This document shows, one piece after another, positions 8,360 to 49,672 of a stretch of 64,000 bases of DNA. The notes beneath the pieces were generated by a model. That model saw only the letters and a list, made by a program, of their open reading frames with translations. It made no database searches and was not told the origin of the DNA. Location: assembly GCF_002854065.1 (NCBI RefSeq), contig NZ_CP024147.1. One strand, written 5' to 3'. The DNA comes from Escherichia coli (lineage in GTDB: Bacteria; Pseudomonadota; Gammaproteobacteria; Enterobacterales; Enterobacteriaceae). The first letter of the stretch is position 1; each line of letters starts with the position of its first letter. Made by a program: the position numbers and the translations under genes.

Positions 8360-8444
8360 GCCGAAGTGGCGAAATCGGTAGACGCAGTTGATTCAAAATC
8401 AACCGTAGAAATACGTGCCGGTTCGAGTCCGGCCTTCGGCACCA
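8360..8444 (+). tRNA. leuX: tRNA-Leu (anticodon CAA)
   Basis: Sequence GCCGAAGTGGCGAAATCGGTAGACGCAGTTGATTCAAAATCAACCGTAGAAATACGTGCCGGTTCGAGTCCGGCCTTCGGCACCA read directly; anticodon loop TTCAAAA; long variable arm. Confidence 0.9.
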
Positions 8445-37085: not shown

Positions 37086-38903
37086 CTACCTTAAACCTGC
37101 CCCTCTCATTCGCTCCTCCAGTTCATCCAGAAATGGGGAACGCCCTAGACGCATAGGGCCGTAGCGACCATCAACAAAACCGGAATACAGCATATGCACC
37201 TCGTCCCGTGCGCGGGTCAGCCCCACATAGAAAAGACGTCGGCTTTCACGCAGCTTCTCTGGCGTCTCATTACGCCACGGCAAATTCCCCAGATCTAAGC
37301 CGACCATGATAACCACGTCATATTCGCAACCTTTGGCTGAGTGAAGTGTCAGCAAATTGAGGTGCTCAGGTGAACCGTCACGACCACCTAGGCTCGTGAT
37401 ATCCAACATCGCTAACGCACCGCCTTCGGCAAGTGCTGCAGTCATGCGATCTAGTTGCTCAGCCTGATCAGAAAGCGTTGGTTCAGTTGCCAGCAGGGAA
37501 TCAACGAGACCGTTGCGCAACGACGCGACAAAATCGGATGCAGAATGTTGGTCGGCACGAAGTGCCCAAAGTAGCCTGGTTAACTCCTGCCCCTTACTCC
37601 GGGCGCATGCATCATCCAGCCTTGCCCGATGAAATGCCAGATAACGGTCTATAAGTCCGCGCAGTTGAGGGCGCCCGATACGCCAACCGCCAGCACACCA
37701 TGCTGCGCAATCCTCCACCCAGCTCGTCAAGGCAACTTTGCGATAAGGTGCTGCGGTATCCACACGAATGTAATCAAAACCGCTAGCTGTCACCGCATCG
37801 GCCACAACATCGCCGGCACGGTAGTCCTTGTACAGAATGGCGATATCACCCAGTGTTCGGCCCGGCTTAGCAGCCAACGCAGCAGGAATAATCTGCTCGA
37901 CAGCATAGACAGCCTGATCCCCCAAGCCATCCGGACACAGCTGGAACGCAATGGTTGTCTGGCGGTTTGGGTCGTTTGCGCGATAACCACGAACCTCACC
38001 CAACACCATCTCCGATGCATTCACGATGTCCGCTCCTGATCTATAGTTCAACTGGAGCCGGACTGTTTCAACGTCTCTCCTGCCTGCCAGTTCTAGTAGT
38101 AACGCACCATCGGCACCAGTGAAACCGTAAATAGATTGGTCTGCATCACCCACTGCAAATAAGCGTACGCCTCCCTCGAAAGCCAGACGTTTGACCATAC
38201 GATGGAGTGCCACGCCCAAATCTTGATATTCATCTACCGCAAGGATCGGAAATTTCGCCTGTACTAGGGGCAGAACCCAATCATGCTCAATTATCAGACG
38301 CTGACCAAATATCACCATATCGTCGTAGTCTATCAGCCCTTGCTGCCGCAATGCAGCTTCGTAGGCCTCGGCCCATGCAGCGAGTTCCTCCTCTGTACGC
38401 CAGGCAACGCTGTTGCGATTCAACACCGAACGGCGATGCCGTCCGAGATCAATAGCCTTATAGGGATGGTTTGCGCCAAAGAGACGGTCACCAGATTGTC
38501 GAAGTAACCGTTCGCTCTCGCGCTGAGACGCTACTGACAGCGGAAATGGGATTGGCAGATCGGCCAGTCGCCCATAGGGCATCAACAGATGGCGCAAGCA
38601 GAACCCATGAACGGTTCCAATAAAGAGATTCGGTGCCTCTCTAAGCCCCAGCGCTTCGAGACGACGGGTTAGCTCGCGTGCGCATTCTTGGCTATATGTG
38701 ATACATGCCGCACCACGTGGAGCTTGAACATCCTCAGCTAGGATTCGTGCCAGCTTCAGCACAAGCGTCTTTGTCTTACCACTCCCCGGGCCCGCGAGCA
38801 CCACGCAGTGTCCCTGGGAGTGATACGCGGATAACTGGCCCGGATTCCCGGCCAGCTCGGCAGCCTGAGCTAAGTAGGCTGCACTGACACTACGTGACGG
38901 CAT
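37086..38903 (-). CDS. gajB: UvrD/PcrA-family SF1 helicase, GajB-like
   Basis: Motifs VLAGPGSGKTKTL (Walker A), ILAVDEYQDLG (motif II), AVGDADQSIYGFTGA (motif III); start set at the ATG overlapping the upstream gene by 14 bp. Confidence 0.7.
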   Translation of the reverse strand: MPSRSVSAAYLAQAAELAGNPGQLSAYHSQGHCVVLAGPGSGKTKTLVLKLARILAEDVQAPRGAACITYSQECARELTRRLEALGLREAPNLFIGTVHGFCLRHLLMPYGRLADLPIPFPLSVASQRESERLLRQSGDRLFGANHPYKAIDLGRHRRSVLNRNSVAWRTEEELAAWAEAYEAALRQQGLIDYDDMVIFGQRLIIEHDWVLPLVQAKFPILAVDEYQDLGVALHRMVKRLAFEGGVRLFAVGDADQSIYGFTGADGALLLELAGRRDVETVRLQLNYRSGADIVNASEMVLGEVRGYRANDPNRQTTIAFQLCPDGLGDQAVYAVEQIIPAALAAKPGRTLGDIAILYKDYRAGDVVADAVTASGFDYIRVDTAAPYRKVALTSWVEDCAAWCAGGWRIGRPQLRGLIDRYLAFHRARLDDACARSKGQELTRLLWALRADQHSASDFVASLRNGLVDSLLATEPTLSDQAEQLDRMTAALAEGGALAMLDITSLGGRDGSPEHLNLLTLHSAKGCEYDVVIMVGLDLGNLPWRNETPEKLRESRRLFYVGLTRARDEVHMLYSGFVDGRYGPMRLGRSPFLDELEERMRGAGLR

Positions 38904-40674
38904 CGCAGATATACTCCAGTGCTTCACGAATGTAATCCGGGCATACATCCTCCGACACCGAGGGTGCCAGCGCTTGGGCGAACCGCCCTTTGCCAATTCG
39001 CTCAATCAGTTTCAACAACCGGACATTATCAAGCTGGTCCGTGTCATCCACCCACGCCTGTATCCTGTTCAGAGTAGCTCGTCTAGGAGACAATTCCTGC
39101 TCGATAACCAACTTCATGGCTTCGCCCAGTCCACCGGTAAACAGCTCTGGCTCCAGAGTGGTCTCATTGACGAAGCATCCAAAATCTCCGGCACGTGCAA
39201 TCACCTCCTCGGTAGTCATATCATCATGATCAACATCGCTCTCAAGCACGTCTAAGATATTGATAAATCTCTTACGAACCAGCGGCTCTCCATCCTCCTC
39301 AGGATCGCGGTCTGTCAGAATCACATGTGGAATATTGAGTCCCCGCGGCCCTAGGAGCTTCACATACGGAGTGAAATTTGTTCCACCGATCGAGCACACC
39401 GTGATCCCAAGCATATCTAGGGGAATATTAAGAGCATCAGCGAATGCTGGGACAAGAAAGCGTTCAGCATCCCCTTCCACCAAGATCACCCCACGTGAAA
39501 AGAATATTTCGCCGCGAGTGACATCGATATAGCGCTGCAGATCATCTTCGTCCCGCGGCGTAAACGGTGCGTTTGCCGTTGAAACCGCAATCGTCTTCCC
39601 TCCCTCCGGATCATGGCGCAGCAAAACGATGGATCTGATTGGTGTGACGCTGGCGATATGCGGGGAATGGGTGGTCAGGATCGTTGTCAACGGTGTTCCT
39701 TCATCACCATTGTCTCCGTCAGTCCCTAGGAAATAACGGTAAACCAGGCGCTGTACGTGCGGATGTAGGTGCGCTTCCGGCTCCTCGACTACGAAAAACG
39801 TATGGTCTCGTTCTCCGTCATTAACAAGACGATCAAGTTCGAGGCTTTTTAGGGCAAGAAAAATCAGATTAGCTGTCCCCAGACTGGCATCGCCAATGCC
39901 ACGAATGCCACTATCAAGCAGCAAACGCAGGCTACGTAGCAGCGCATCAACGCGAGTCGGTGCAAGTCCGAGCGATACCGGAACGGCATGTTGCTCACCT
40001 GCGATAGCTATCAACCTTTCGCTAATTCGTTCGGCTGTCGCTGCCACCTCATCATGATCAGCCAGTTCCCGTTGAGCCTCATCAACTTGGGTTTGAATCT
40101 CCTCACGAGTCTCGTCGTCCAGAGATGCGGACAGTTCTTCAATAAGCGGTCTTAAGGGTGAATTACGCCAGCTTGAAAGGTCCTTCTCGGCATCACGCAA
40201 CGCGCCTTGAACATCAATGGGCAACATACGGCGAAAGGCACCACCAATATGCATGTCAGGATCAGCTCCACCGAAGATCACATACTCATAATCTTTTAAC
40301 GATTCAGGAGCTCGATTTAACGCGGTTTTGGGCTGAAAGCGGTAGGTAAGACGGGCCACCATCGGAGGCCCCGGATTTAGGACACAGTCATTCAGATGAG
40401 CCATCAATCGGGGATCGTCAGTGAACTCAGTAAGATCCACTGAAATTTCGATGGTCTCCCCCAGTTTGTCTTCGCCCAATCCATCCCAAAAATGTTCAAA
40501 ACCCAGTTGACGGTCACGCTCAGACAACCCTGGGTCAAGAATCAGCTGCAGGCCGCGAATAAAATTGCTCTTGCCAACCTTGTTTTCACCAACAATAACA
40601 ATACTCTCACCCGTTTCAACATCAACATCGGAGAAGTTGGCGAAATTAATTAACCGGATTCGGGAAATCCGCAT
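38890..40674 (-). CDS. gajA: OLD-family ATPase with C-terminal TOPRIM nuclease domain, GajA-like
   Basis: N-terminal ABC ATPase (IRLINFANF, GENKVGKSN, VVEEPEAHLHP, LTTHSP) and C-terminal TOPRIM (VILVEGDAERFLVPAF). Confidence 0.7.
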   Translation of the reverse strand: MRISRIRLINFANFSDVDVETGESIVIVGENKVGKSNFIRGLQLILDPGLSERDRQLGFEHFWDGLGEDKLGETIEISVDLTEFTDDPRLMAHLNDCVLNPGPPMVARLTYRFQPKTALNRAPESLKDYEYVIFGGADPDMHIGGAFRRMLPIDVQGALRDAEKDLSSWRNSPLRPLIEELSASLDDETREEIQTQVDEAQRELADHDEVAATAERISERLIAIAGEQHAVPVSLGLAPTRVDALLRSLRLLLDSGIRGIGDASLGTANLIFLALKSLELDRLVNDGERDHTFFVVEEPEAHLHPHVQRLVYRYFLGTDGDNGDEGTPLTTILTTHSPHIASVTPIRSIVLLRHDPEGGKTIAVSTANAPFTPRDEDDLQRYIDVTRGEIFFSRGVILVEGDAERFLVPAFADALNIPLDMLGITVCSIGGTNFTPYVKLLGPRGLNIPHVILTDRDPEEDGEPLVRKRFINILDVLESDVDHDDMTTEEVIARAGDFGCFVNETTLEPELFTGGLGEAMKLVIEQELSPRRATLNRIQAWVDDTDQLDNVRLLKLIERIGKGRFAQALAPSVSEDVCPDYIREALEYICDAVT

Positions 40675-41229: not shown

Positions 41230-42105
41230 ATGAATAAACCTGACGGCCTTCAGGCCTTTGAACAACCGCTTGCGTCGCTTCCGTGCACACTTCGCCAGCT
41301 TATTCTTGAACGTATCCAGAACCTGACCCATTACGAGCCGGTGATTGGAATCATGGGCAAAAGTGGTACAGGTAAATCCTCTCTCTGCAACGAACTTTTC
41401 CGGGGCGAGGTGTCCCCGGTGAGTGACGTGAATGCCTGTACTCGCGACGTGCTGCGTTTCCGGTTACGCAGTGGGCGTCACAGCCTGGTGATTGTTGATT
41501 TACCGGGCGTGGGCGAAAACGGGCAGCGGGATCAAGAATACCGTGCCCTGTACCGTCGAATCCTGCCGGAGCTGGACCTGGTGCTGTGGGTCATTAAGGC
41601 CGATGATCGGGCACTAACCGTGGACGAGCAGTTCTGGCACGGTGTGATGCAAACTTACAGGCAAAAGGTACTGTTCGTGATTAACCAGGCCGACAAAATC
41701 GAACCCTGCCATGAATGGGATACCCTCACCAGCAAACCTTCACCGCACCAACTGGGAAATCTTAAAGCGAAGCAGGCTGCGATTATGGTGATGTTTAAAC
41801 CGCATCATCCGGTCTGTGTGGTGTCAGCCCGCACTGGATGGGGCATTGAGGAGATGGTGGCAGCCATGATGCGCTGTCTGCCTGACCGCGCCACCAGCCC
41901 GGTGGTGACACAACTGCACAGGAAACTCTGCACAGAGCCGGTAAAGTCGCAGGCTCGTGACAGTTTCGGTGAAGCTGTGGGCCGGGTTTTCGATACCGCA
42001 GAATCATCTTCGTTCCTGTCTACATCGCTGAAAACGGTGATTCGTAGCGTGCGTGATGCGGTGGTGTCGGTCGCACGGGCCGTCTGGGACTGGATATTCT
42101 TCTGA
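41230..42105 (+). CDS. YfjP/YkfA-family GTPase (prophage CP4-57-like)
   Basis: G1 motif GKSGTGKSS, DLPG, NQADK. Confidence 0.75.
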   Translation: MNKPDGLQAFEQPLASLPCTLRQLILERIQNLTHYEPVIGIMGKSGTGKSSLCNELFRGEVSPVSDVNACTRDVLRFRLRSGRHSLVIVDLPGVGENGQRDQEYRALYRRILPELDLVLWVIKADDRALTVDEQFWHGVMQTYRQKVLFVINQADKIEPCHEWDTLTSKPSPHQLGNLKAKQAAIMVMFKPHHPVCVVSARTGWGIEEMVAAMMRCLPDRATSPVVTQLHRKLCTEPVKSQARDSFGEAVGRVFDTAESSSFLSTSLKTVIRSVRDAVVSVARAVWDWIFF

Positions 42106-46780: not shown

Positions 46781-47043
46781 ATATTGGGAATAGCCTTCCT
46801 GATTCACACTGCAGCTTTCCTTACTTATTTAATTTACTCATTCCAAAAAGCACCTGCCGATGCTGGTTGGTGCTTTTACTTATATGGACGAAATATCATG
46901 CAAATAGAAGCTGTAATTTTAACTGGGCACATTATCGCAAGTACAATCCGGGAATGCTGGGCCGTCGTTGTTGATGGTTTTGACGCATGCGGCGAACAAG
47001 CTTATGATCCAGCTTAATTTCTTTTCCTCATGAAGGGACGGGT

Positions 47044-48051
47044 ATGGGCAACAGAATGTGGATGATTCGCGGTGACGGCGGCAAGCTCTATGACGATTTT
47101 CGCGATAAGCAAATTGTAGGCATCGGTTGGTCTCAGCTGGCTCCATTAGTCAAACCCGGCCTGTCCCGAGCCCAGTTACTCGCCTTATACCAGGAGGCAG
47201 ATCCCTTAACAAAGCTGGGAACAGCCCGTTCTGGTGCATCGCAGGTCTGGCGTTTTGTGAATGAGATCCAAAAGGGTGATTGGGTTATTACCTATTCGCC
47301 AGCCAACCGTACTTATTTGCTAGGCAAAGTCACATCCGACTTCCAATATCATCCTGAATGGGTGGAAGAGGGGATGGGGATCGCTCGGCAGGTTAAATGG
47401 AATACTCAAGAAATCGACCGCGATAGACTGTCTGTTGCTACCAAAAACACATTGGGTTCTACGCTGACGGTTTTTCAGCTTCCAGAATATGCGCTAGAAG
47501 AGCTTTTGCAGGATAAGAAACCCACTATAGATGTAATTACTCAGAATCCAGTTGCAATGGATGAAGATGAGGTCGTTTCTGATCCGCTTCGCGATATGGA
47601 AATGCTGGCGTTTGAGGGTATCAAAGATCGTATTAACTCTCTTGATTGGGACGAGATGCAAAATCTTGTTGCCGGAGTTTTACGCAGTATGGGCTATAAA
47701 ACGCAGGTTTCACCTGCGGGAGCCGATCGGGGTAAAGACATCATTGCTTCACCTGATGGGTTCGGTTTTGAAAATCCGCGTATTATCGTTGAGGTAAAGC
47801 ACCGCAGGGAACAGATGGGAAGCCAACAGATACGCAGCTTTATCGGCGGTCGCCATAAAGACGATCGCGGGCTTTATGTCAGTACAGGGGGTTTTACGAA
47901 AGATGCTCGATATGAAGCCGACCGTTCGACGATACCACTGACGCTCTGGACACTTGATGATCTCGTCCGTGCGCTTATTGAGAACTACGAACAAGTTGAT
48001 ATCGAGACTAAACTTTTGGTGCCTCTGAAGAAAACTTTCCTGCCTGCCTGA
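47044..48051 (+). CDS. Mrr-like restriction endonuclease (Mrr catalytic domain) with an uncharacterised N-terminal domain
   Basis: C-terminal core GADRGKDIIA...RIIVEVKHRR...GLYVSTGGFTKDA resembles the Mrr catalytic domain. Confidence 0.6.
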   Translation: MGNRMWMIRGDGGKLYDDFRDKQIVGIGWSQLAPLVKPGLSRAQLLALYQEADPLTKLGTARSGASQVWRFVNEIQKGDWVITYSPANRTYLLGKVTSDFQYHPEWVEEGMGIARQVKWNTQEIDRDRLSVATKNTLGSTLTVFQLPEYALEELLQDKKPTIDVITQNPVAMDEDEVVSDPLRDMEMLAFEGIKDRINSLDWDEMQNLVAGVLRSMGYKTQVSPAGADRGKDIIASPDGFGFENPRIIVEVKHRREQMGSQQIRSFIGGRHKDDRGLYVSTGGFTKDARYEADRSTIPLTLWTLDDLVRALIENYEQVDIETKLLVPLKKTFLPA

Positions 48052-48430: not shown

Positions 48431-49014
48431 GGCTACAAGGCTGAAATTGTCTAAACCATAGAGATGATTTTTATGATCCAGTCTTTCTCTTGTTGAGATA
48501 GTTCCAGTTTGCTCACTCGTGTTAAGAAGGTATTGATCACCTGAACATCCGAATTGGTGAGCCTATTTAATAGAGCGGGTGGTATACCTTTACTAACAAT
48601 CGCTTTGCGGTGACTTTCGTAGTTTTTATTACTCATTGTTGATCCTAAAAAATCATTGTATGGCGGCATTGATCGTTTCCAGCAACCTTTACTTACTCAC
48701 TTCGAACTGCATCCTCGTAGACTGTTCCACTACAATAATCGAAAAGGCGCGGATGTCCATTCAGGTATCCCGCTAATACGTATAGCAATAACAATGGCTT
48801 ATGCGGCGCGCGCTGTTCACCCTTGTGCCAGATTTTTATATTGGCAATTGCCTGCTGTAGCGATTTACTGGAAGCTATTGATATCCCTGGCAGTGAAATA
48901 ATTGCGATCATGCTCGCAAATTTTCTGCTGTTCAAGCCTGCAAGTGAAGATATATTACCTTGATCTCATTTGTTTTTTTGCTGCCTGTTCTGAGAACGTA
49001 TAAGGACATTCTCC

Positions 49015-49665
49015 ATGAATAAACTCCCTGATCATCTTCCGCGGCGGTATATCATCGAAGCTATCCATTTATGGGATGCGGGAGAAACTCATCAGTTCCA
49101 GCCTGCGCGGTTGTATGAGATTGAATATCATGGCCGACGTTACCCCTCGAAGGCGATTGCTGGCATCGCAGCGACATTGATGACGGGGACGCAATTTACC
49201 CCTGCGGATTTCACCGGCGGAATAAAATCTAAATGTGTCAAGCTACTCATAGAGCAGGGATTTCATATTCATCTGGATAAAGCCGCTGCGGCTCCCATAG
49301 CCGACGTTCTGTTCCCGGATGAGTTGCCGTCGCAGGAGACATACCTTGAAGGTGCGGCGATAAAGGTGACAGTAAACCGCTATGAACGCGATAAAAAGGC
49401 CCGAGATAAAGCGGTCGAACATCATGGATGCCAGTGCAACGTATGCGGTGTTGATCTGGTGAAGATCTATGGTGATATCGCTGAAGGCTTTATCCATGTG
49501 CATCACCTGGTGCCGCTGTCAGCCATTAAAGAGGATTACCAGCTGGATCCAGTTAATGATTTGCTGCCTGTGTACCCTAATTGCCATGCGATGTTGCACC
49601 GACGCAAACCACCGTTTACGCCGGAGCAGTTAAAAGCGCTGATGGATGCGAATAAATCAAATTAA
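49015..49665 (+). CDS. HNH endonuclease, possibly a modification-dependent restriction enzyme
   Basis: C-terminal HNH motif CQCNVCG...HVHHLVPL...NDLLPVYPNCHAMLH. Confidence 0.55.
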   Translation: MNKLPDHLPRRYIIEAIHLWDAGETHQFQPARLYEIEYHGRRYPSKAIAGIAATLMTGTQFTPADFTGGIKSKCVKLLIEQGFHIHLDKAAAAPIADVLFPDELPSQETYLEGAAIKVTVNRYERDKKARDKAVEHHGCQCNVCGVDLVKIYGDIAEGFIHVHHLVPLSAIKEDYQLDPVNDLLPVYPNCHAMLHRRKPPFTPEQLKALMDANKSN

Positions 49666-49672
49666 TGAACGC

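Follow-up and report, generated by a model that had tools for sequence, protein, structure and literature searches.

The analysed window is a stretch of 64,000 nucleotides from Escherichia coli (assembly GCF_002854065.1, contig NZ_CP024147.1), and it encodes on its plus strand a probable restriction endonuclease (47044..48051) with a C-terminal nuclease domain of the Mrr type and an N-terminal domain of a different kind. The original prediction, made from the DNA letters and the translated open reading frames (ORFs), had placed here an Mrr-like endonuclease with an unrecognised N-terminal domain, located at the edge of a genomic island. The ORF exists with exactly these coordinates and is intact, beginning with ATG and coding for a complete protein of 335 residues followed by a stop codon. 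A Shine-Dalgarno-like sequence, AAGGGA (47033..47038), can be read 5 nt before the ATG. A candidate sigma-70-like promoter, TTGACG-17-TATGAT (46980..47008), which ends 36 nt upstream of the start codon and agrees with the consensus at 10 of 12 positions, is a consensus match only, and such sites are no commoner in the region than expected from shuffled sequence, making it weak evidence.

A gene 100% identical at the nucleotide level is present in strain VTB96935v, where its product is RefSeq WP_001757896.1, named 'restriction endonuclease'. The whole protein matches the PADLOC model PDLC04819 of PDC-S02 (E 1.8e-81, residues 1-335 on model positions 1-330 of 334), while the NCBIfam scan of the 335 residues returned no match. 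Close homologues (up to 99% identity) bear precomputed assignments to PF28530 (DUF8426) and PF04471; the name DUF8426 is taken from these homologue annotations, the family being newer than the copy of Pfam that was scanned.

Alignments of homologues reveal two well-conserved domains separated by a variable acidic linker. The N-terminal domain (residues 1-157, 47044..47514), assigned to DUF8426, is an EVE/YTH-like domain of the PUA superfamily and the predicted reader of a modified base. The linker (residues ~158-180, 47515..47583) is predicted to be disordered, with a predicted local distance difference test score (pLDDT) below 50 for residues 158-179, and is unconserved and gapped among close homologues. 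The C-terminal PD-(D/E)xK nuclease domain (residues 181-335, 47584..48048) was delimited from the Mrr_cat match and the secondary structure of the model. The model of the 335-residue protein, including the disordered linker, has a pLDDT of 78.8.

The nuclease domain is recognised with high significance by Pfam Mrr_cat (PF04471), which covers residues 198-310 (nt 47635-47973) with E 1.9e-24 and 86 bits against a cutoff of 21. The predicted catalytic aspartate of the PD-(D/E)xK fold is D232 (codon 47737..47739, in the context GKD-IIA), and the predicted catalytic ExK motif is E250-V251-K252 (47791..47799, within VEVKH); both were located by sequence conservation. These three residues are invariant across 30 close homologues. 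In a diverged set of 33 full-length sequences, comprising the query and 32 representatives of clusters formed at 50% identity, D232 is retained in 31 and K252 also in 31, while position 250 is glutamate in 28 and glutamine in 4. A QxK form of the motif is known for the MspJI family (PMC12707154), with which the glutamine variants agree. A weak secondary Pfam match to NA-iREase1, 'inactive restriction endonuclease', scored 24 bits, below the cutoff of 27.

The N-terminal part of the protein is not that of Mrr. The Pfam scan identified no family in the first ~190 residues at E<=10, including no Mrr_N (PF14338), while Mrr of E. coli K-12, scanned identically as a control, yielded both Mrr_N (3e-20) and Mrr_cat. 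BLASTP aligned the protein with K-12 Mrr only over residues 234-325, at 31% identity, and found nothing N-terminal to it. Mrr_N is usually described as a winged helix; the model of the N-terminal domain (pLDDT 94.7) is a PUA-like barrel and not a winged helix. An ordinary Mrr was therefore rejected as a candidate, Mrr_N being absent. Thus, the label 'Mrr-like' is appropriate for the catalytic domain, whose motifs had been correctly placed in the C-terminal half, and fails for the N-terminal domain. The impression that the N-terminus did not resemble that of K-12 Mrr was borne out, since the alignment with an ordinary Mrr N-terminal domain that had been named beforehand as its refutation did not appear. 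The absence of Mrr_N and the profile homology to EVE also support the suggestion that a different reader-type domain, for which EVE, SRA and YTH had been named, is fused to the nuclease; reading of a modified base by this domain is a prediction.

Comparison of structures indicates the nature of this domain. It forms a PUA-like pseudo-barrel similar to the solved EVE, YTH and ASCH domains; in a Foldseek search YTH domains rank first (E~5e-5, TM-score 0.5-0.6), and the further fold relatives include other EVE proteins, ASCH proteins, THYN1 bound to DNA carrying 5-methylcytosine (5mC), and the N-terminal DNA-reading domains of archaeal McrB. Sequence searches of PDB, performed with the single protein and with a profile of the N-terminal domain, yielded nothing meaningful (best E 0.014-0.2, the level of chance), and the relationship was found only by fold comparison and by comparison of profiles with each other. 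An EVE alignment was assembled from 14 domains in the supplement of Bell et al. 2020 (PMC7641849). With hhalign, the DUF8426 alignment matched it at 93.9% probability and E 1.6e-7, the 125 matched columns extending over the entire domain, while the reversed, column-shuffled and unrelated Mrr_cat controls gave at most 1%. EVE was also the sole recurrent Pfam match, a weak one, among relatives (6 of 37, best E 0.0039); such sub-threshold matches, for example 13.9 bits against a cutoff of 23, cover the helix-GD-beta3-beta4 core. The hhalign gap marks an insertion of ~32 residues (35-66, 47146..47241) which is absent from canonical EVE domains; it comprises two helices located between beta-2 and the conserved helix, and the model has helices at residues 42-52 and 58-74. 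No paper linking DUF8426 to EVE or characterising the family was found in the literature, and the papers that name PDC-S02 give it only as an entry in censuses.

The same alignment superimposes conserved residues of the two families. W6 falls on the tryptophan of the EVE motif 'YWLxK', W29 on the tryptophan of 'W-GVRN' (column W26 of the EVE alignment), G78-D79 on the invariant 'GD', Y84 on the tyrosine of 'FYHS', and STLTVF (residues 139-144) on 'RLSVxP'. In VcaM4I the flipped 5mC or 5-hydroxymethylcytosine (5hmC) lies in a pocket walled by W22/P24 and W82, to which W26 and Y82 of the EVE protein 2eve (PDB) correspond (PMC7897488). Judged by motif, W29 (codon 47128..47130, conserved in 28 of 33 sequences) would be the equivalent of W26 in 2eve, and Y84 (codon 47293..47295, conserved in 31 of 33) that of Y82 in 2eve and W82 in VcaM4I, making these two residues candidate walls of the flipped-base pocket. 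Residues W6, R9, W29, Y84, R89, W119, R126 and D127 are retained by homologues whose identity is below 50%. Judged from profile comparison and the structural model, the hhalign match and this placement of residues identify the DUF8426 domain as a divergent EVE-like domain.

The family is large and widespread. Homologues of the whole protein form 3812 clusters at 90% identity, and those of residues 1-175 alone form 1669 clusters at 50% identity; they span proteobacteria, Firmicutes, actinobacteria and haloarchaea. Homologues 62-91% identical to the query are found in Enterobacterales, Pseudomonas, Burkholderia and Xanthomonas, and full-length homologues reside on plasmids of Proteus, Haloarcula, Bacillus, Corynebacterium and others. 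The gene is rare in E. coli, being present in 42 of 5426 complete genomes (4 at 100% nucleotide identity and 38 at 80-99%), always on the chromosome; the annotation, where one is listed, is only 'restriction endonuclease'.

In the window, a segment of ~21 kb (~27737-48734), in the leuX-linked KpLE2 area (leuX, 8360-8444), stands in place of the short yjhR pseudogene region of K-12. The restriction endonuclease gene is the last intact gene of this insert. Homology with K-12 restarts at 48735, ~680 bp past the stop codon, and continues into nanS-nanM-nanC-fim, in agreement with the predicted island edge. The cargo of the segment includes a YagK/YfjJ gene, Gabija, a GTPase, DUF932, an antirestriction gene, RadC, YeeU/CbtA and the restriction endonuclease gene. 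In E. coli and Rahnella the gene always follows a CP4-57-like backbone composed of the GTPase, a helix-turn-helix gene, DUF932, the antirestriction gene, RadC and YeeU/CbtA. The downstream cargo varies, consisting of a type I restriction-modification (RM) system in strain A41, an intact phosphorothioate-DNA-binding endonuclease in ST80 and its remnant in the window; in E. coli, the DNA that immediately follows CbtA resembles a hotspot of variable defence cargo.

A complete Gabija system is encoded on the minus strand of the same island (37086-40674), ~6.4 kb upstream of the restriction endonuclease gene, by GajA (38890-40674, PADLOC 3.7e-233) and GajB (37086-39005, PADLOC 2.3e-258). The phosphorothioate-related remnant is an ORF of 80 residues (48693-48935, minus strand) which corresponds to the N-terminal part of a PT-DNA_restrict endonuclease (NCBIfam 1.7e-16, model positions 2-45 of 284). 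The intact PT-DNA_restrict gene occupies the equivalent place in E. coli ST80 strain Es_ST80_L1_NDM_10_2017, and K-12 has only short fragments of this region. Between the island junction and nanS lies a gene for an HNH endonuclease of 216 residues (49015-49665, plus strand) that is absent from K-12, homology with which covers 48919-49043 and restarts at 49670. No family was found for the N-terminal ~130 residues of the HNH protein, and its residues 65-149 weakly match PT-DNA_restrict (E 0.0019); it could be another fusion of a reader and a nuclease. The GTPase-family protein of the island (YeeP-like, 41230-42105, plus strand) has a weak partial PADLOC match to LeoBC (2.8e-7), which is probably generic GTPase similarity.

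Homologues from a wide range of bacteria and archaea are encoded singly, within defence islands, and the neighbouring genes differ in each taxon examined. The Xanthomonas copy is flanked by a ParE toxin gene and a type I RM system, the Burkholderia copy by a Schlafen-AlbA gene and a type III RM system, and the Pseudomonas copy adjoins an integrase and an HNH gene. Altogether the contexts include type I or III RM systems, integrases, toxin-antitoxin modules and Gabija, and PDC-S02 itself is a candidate class defined by genes embedded in BREX, DISARM and RM loci. Neither a conserved neighbour nor a dedicated methyltransferase was found in the taxa examined, and each methyltransferase nearby is part of a complete type I or type III system. 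The annotation of the corresponding island in VTB96935v, whose gene layout agrees with the ORFs of the window, includes no methyltransferase. A type II enzyme that has lost its methyltransferase was considered and is unlikely, since the gene stands alone in all contexts examined and such an enzyme, lacking protection of the host DNA, would kill the cell.

The N-terminal domain is mostly, yet not exclusively, joined to Mrr-like nucleases. Among its carriers of 300-400 residues, 32 of 33 representatives possess an Mrr-like C-terminus, and most other long matches of the N-terminal domain are frameshifted or truncated. The exceptions comprise several other fusions. The metagenome protein P0257 (1176 residues) combines DUF8426 with GmrSD_N (DUF262) and Schlafen/AlbA_2 as a type IV-like effector, and one protein carries an additional zinc ribbon of the topoisomerase type. 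In the metagenome protein P0236 (292 residues) a DUF8426-like N-terminal domain precedes a C-terminus with no Mrr_cat match, which by eye looks like another PD-(D/E)xK domain (FPD...IEFEYKS...CDIIVCWEHDW). The Streptococcus phage Javan74 encodes, beside the integrase, a protein (QBX31787.1) whose residues 27-194 match the reader of the PDC-S02/DUF8426 type (PADLOC 2.9e-17). Its C-terminal ~165 residues match no nuclease model and contain one strongly hydrophobic helix at ~262-282 (Kyte-Doolittle 1.73). A match of this type recurs in several Streptococcus prophages, and the protein may represent the same sensor on a membrane-acting effector. These fusions therefore suggest that the domain acts as a portable sensor, mostly on DNA-cutting effectors. 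Residues 23-155 of the query also match the middle of the PADLOC REase_II model PDLC03448 (positions 283-416 of 857, E 1e-9); the same reader is therefore also found inside a far larger enzyme bearing the label 'Type II restriction enzyme'.

Comparison of the full-length model with solved structures by Foldseek returned MspJI (4F0Q, E 1.5e-7) and AspBHI (4OC8, E 1e-4) as the best matches, both extending across the two domains. The match to 4F0Q comprises 376 aligned columns with a global TM-score of 0.31, a low value attributable to a different arrangement of the domains or to a flexible linker. MspJI and AspBHI are modification-dependent enzymes composed of an SRA-like reader of the PUA superfamily and an Mrr-like nuclease (PMC12707154). 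The query shares with the MspJI family (MspJI, AspBHI and LpnPI) the order of a PUA-superfamily reader followed by an Mrr-like PD-(D/E/Q)xK domain, and neither has a partner methyltransferase. However, the protein has no SRA-like N-terminal domain and no detectable sequence homology to these enzymes, and therefore falls outside the MspJI family. Similarly, it has Mrr_cat in common with EcoKMrr, and both are encoded by solitary genes beside RM systems in mobile regions, but the N-terminus of EcoKMrr is Mrr_N while the query carries the EVE-like domain instead, which places it outside the Mrr family proper. In design it resembles both families.

Among EVE-containing enzymes, the VcaM4I/TspA15I group (PDB 6YEX) joins EVE to an HNH nuclease, unlike the PD-(D/E)xK nuclease (Mrr_cat) of the query. 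Relative to VcaM4I, the reader has the extra helical insertion of ~32 residues, scores below the Pfam EVE threshold and shows an identity of ~10%. The EVE domain of VcaM4I has been demonstrated experimentally to flip 5mC and 5hmC (PMC7897488), and the specificity of this enzyme for 5mC/5hmC was measured. YenY4I (PUA-DUF3427-PD-(D/E)XK; PMC6765204) shares the architecture class of the query and differs in its additional DUF3427 and in the family of its nuclease. Bell, Wolf and Koonin had predicted in 2020 (PMC7641849) that proteins combining EVE with PD-(D/E)XK are type IV enzymes, and the query has an identical class of architecture and the same functional prediction. The same census contains rare EVE-GmrSD fusions, comparable with P0257. 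The motifs of DUF8426 (WMVRA, SQVWRF, VTYDP and others) are absent from the accessible part of the EVE supplement of that study, so the DUF8426 subfamily may be outside the census. The query belongs both to PADLOC PDC-S02 and to Pfam DUF8426, entries which are labels without a link to EVE or a mechanism. It is thus an uncharacterised protein of the EVE-PD(D/E)XK class, the design itself being already known.

Taken with the properties of VcaM4I and MspJI, these features make it probable that the gene encodes a stand-alone, nucleoside triphosphate-independent, type IV-like (modification-dependent) restriction endonuclease, part of the defence cargo found at the far end of a CP4-57-like island. 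The N-terminal EVE/YTH-like domain would bind DNA and flip a modified base into a conserved aromatic pocket, for which W29 and Y84 are the candidates. The flexible acidic linker would tie this reader to the Mrr-type PD-(D/E)xK domain (D232, E250, K252), which would cut the DNA nearby; like MspJI and VcaM4I, the enzyme would probably work as a dimer or a larger assembly. Foreign DNA of a phage or plasmid bearing the recognised modification would be destroyed, and no methyltransferase partner would be needed because the DNA of the host lacks the mark. E. coli hosts are normally Dam+ and Dcm+, and G6mATC and C5mCWGG are therefore unlikely targets; other sequence contexts, or hypermodified phage bases such as derivatives of 5hmC, are more likely.

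Several observations weigh against a modification-dependent restriction enzyme. The query does not reach the Pfam thresholds for EVE (PF01878) or YTH, and DUF8426 is therefore a distinct family within the superfamily; the assignment of W29 and Y84 to the pocket is by alignment with VcaM4I and 2eve only; and no paper mentioning DUF8426 or WP_001757896 was found in the literature. One representative of PDC-S02, of cold-seep metagenome origin, failed to protect E. coli B against T4, T5 and T7. Its subfamily may not be that of the query, and a failure to protect a heterologous host counts for little. Mrr_cat is also a non-specific effector in abortive-infection systems such as Lamassu, Avs and Epona, so the nuclease domain alone is no proof of restriction. 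Finally, EVE/YTH folds also read modifications of RNA and, in one system, the free nucleotide m6-dAMP (PMC12871103).

The last two points also favour the main rival explanation, an abortive-infection function, in which the EVE-like domain would respond to phage RNA or DNA that carries a modification, or to a modified nucleotide set free in the infected cell, and Mrr_cat, then released or activated, would act as an indiscriminate DNase, killing or arresting the infected cell. Besides the systems mentioned, Mrr_cat serves as an effector in NLR-like systems (PMC9122126), the system responding to free m6-dAMP is reported to contain a PUA domain, and the DUF8426-like domain joined to an unrelated non-nuclease C-terminus in Streptococcus prophages looks like a sensor with a different effector. 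However, the closest structural matches of the whole protein, MspJI and AspBHI, are bona fide modification-dependent restriction enzymes, and VcaM4I, the closest characterised fusion of EVE and a nuclease, directly restricts modified DNA. The pairing of DUF8426 with GmrSD_N, a module of direct restriction, and the lack of an oligomerisation, NTPase or other signalling domain in the query likewise argue against it; a sensor of abortive infection is an unlikely explanation.

An improbable alternative is that the same biochemistry serves to benefit the island rather than to ward off phage, in competition between elements or in addiction, by excluding rival plasmids or islands that bring in foreign methyltransferases or by acting as a stabilising toxin. 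Consistent with this are the invariable position of the gene in E. coli and Rahnella, where it immediately follows the conserved backbone of the island, its rarity in E. coli, the failure of the PDC-S02 representative to protect against three classic phages, and the positive correlation of PDC-S02 presence with the number of prophages in P. aeruginosa isolates. Yet the copies in Xanthomonas, Burkholderia and Pseudomonas lack that backbone and lie beside RM systems or an integrase, and there is no conserved antitoxin-like partner; moreover, this explanation differs from restriction of modified DNA in the biological role only and not in the mechanism. It is very improbable that the gene is a decayed relic, or that its nuclease fold serves non-catalytic DNA binding, as the weak NA-iREase1 match and the pseudogene remnants among the neighbouring genes might suggest, since the ORF is intact and identical in four E. 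coli assemblies, homologues in Enterobacterales, Pseudomonas, Burkholderia and Xanthomonas share 62-91% identity with it, the catalytic D/E/K residues do not vary among close homologues and show ~94% conservation in distant ones, and both domains are under evident purifying selection.

A more speculative and rather unlikely extension of modification-dependent restriction is that DUF8426 is an EVE-derived reader with a new type IV specificity which also serves as a portable sensor for varied effectors. The 32-residue insertion and a conserved arginine-rich surface (R9, R89, R115 and R126) could then read a hypermodified phage base. The candidate cues could include 7-deazaguanine, a derivative of 5-hydroxymethyluracil or 5hmC, Mom-type adenine, and modified RNA or nucleotides; the effectors may comprise Mrr_cat, GmrSD, other PD-(D/E)xK domains and the putative membrane-helix effector of Streptococcus prophages. 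If this were true, the family would provide a new tool for mapping a DNA modification and a new class of phage-defence sensors.

Modification-dependent nucleases determine the entry of modified phages and plasmids, and the MspJI family serves for the mapping of 5mC and 5hmC. In the databases searched, the present family is labelled only 'restriction endonuclease', 'DUF8426' or 'PDC-S02 candidate'; the assignment of its N-terminal domain to EVE/YTH replaces these labels by a mechanism that can be tested on named residues. Lutz et al. 2019 (PMC6765204) reported a single instance of a PUA reader fused directly to a PD-(D/E)xK nuclease, YenY4I, and the distribution of the family suggests that direct fusions of this kind are much commoner. 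For E. coli, the gene represents a predicted, rare accessory restriction function at the variable cargo end of CP4-57-like islands, near Gabija.

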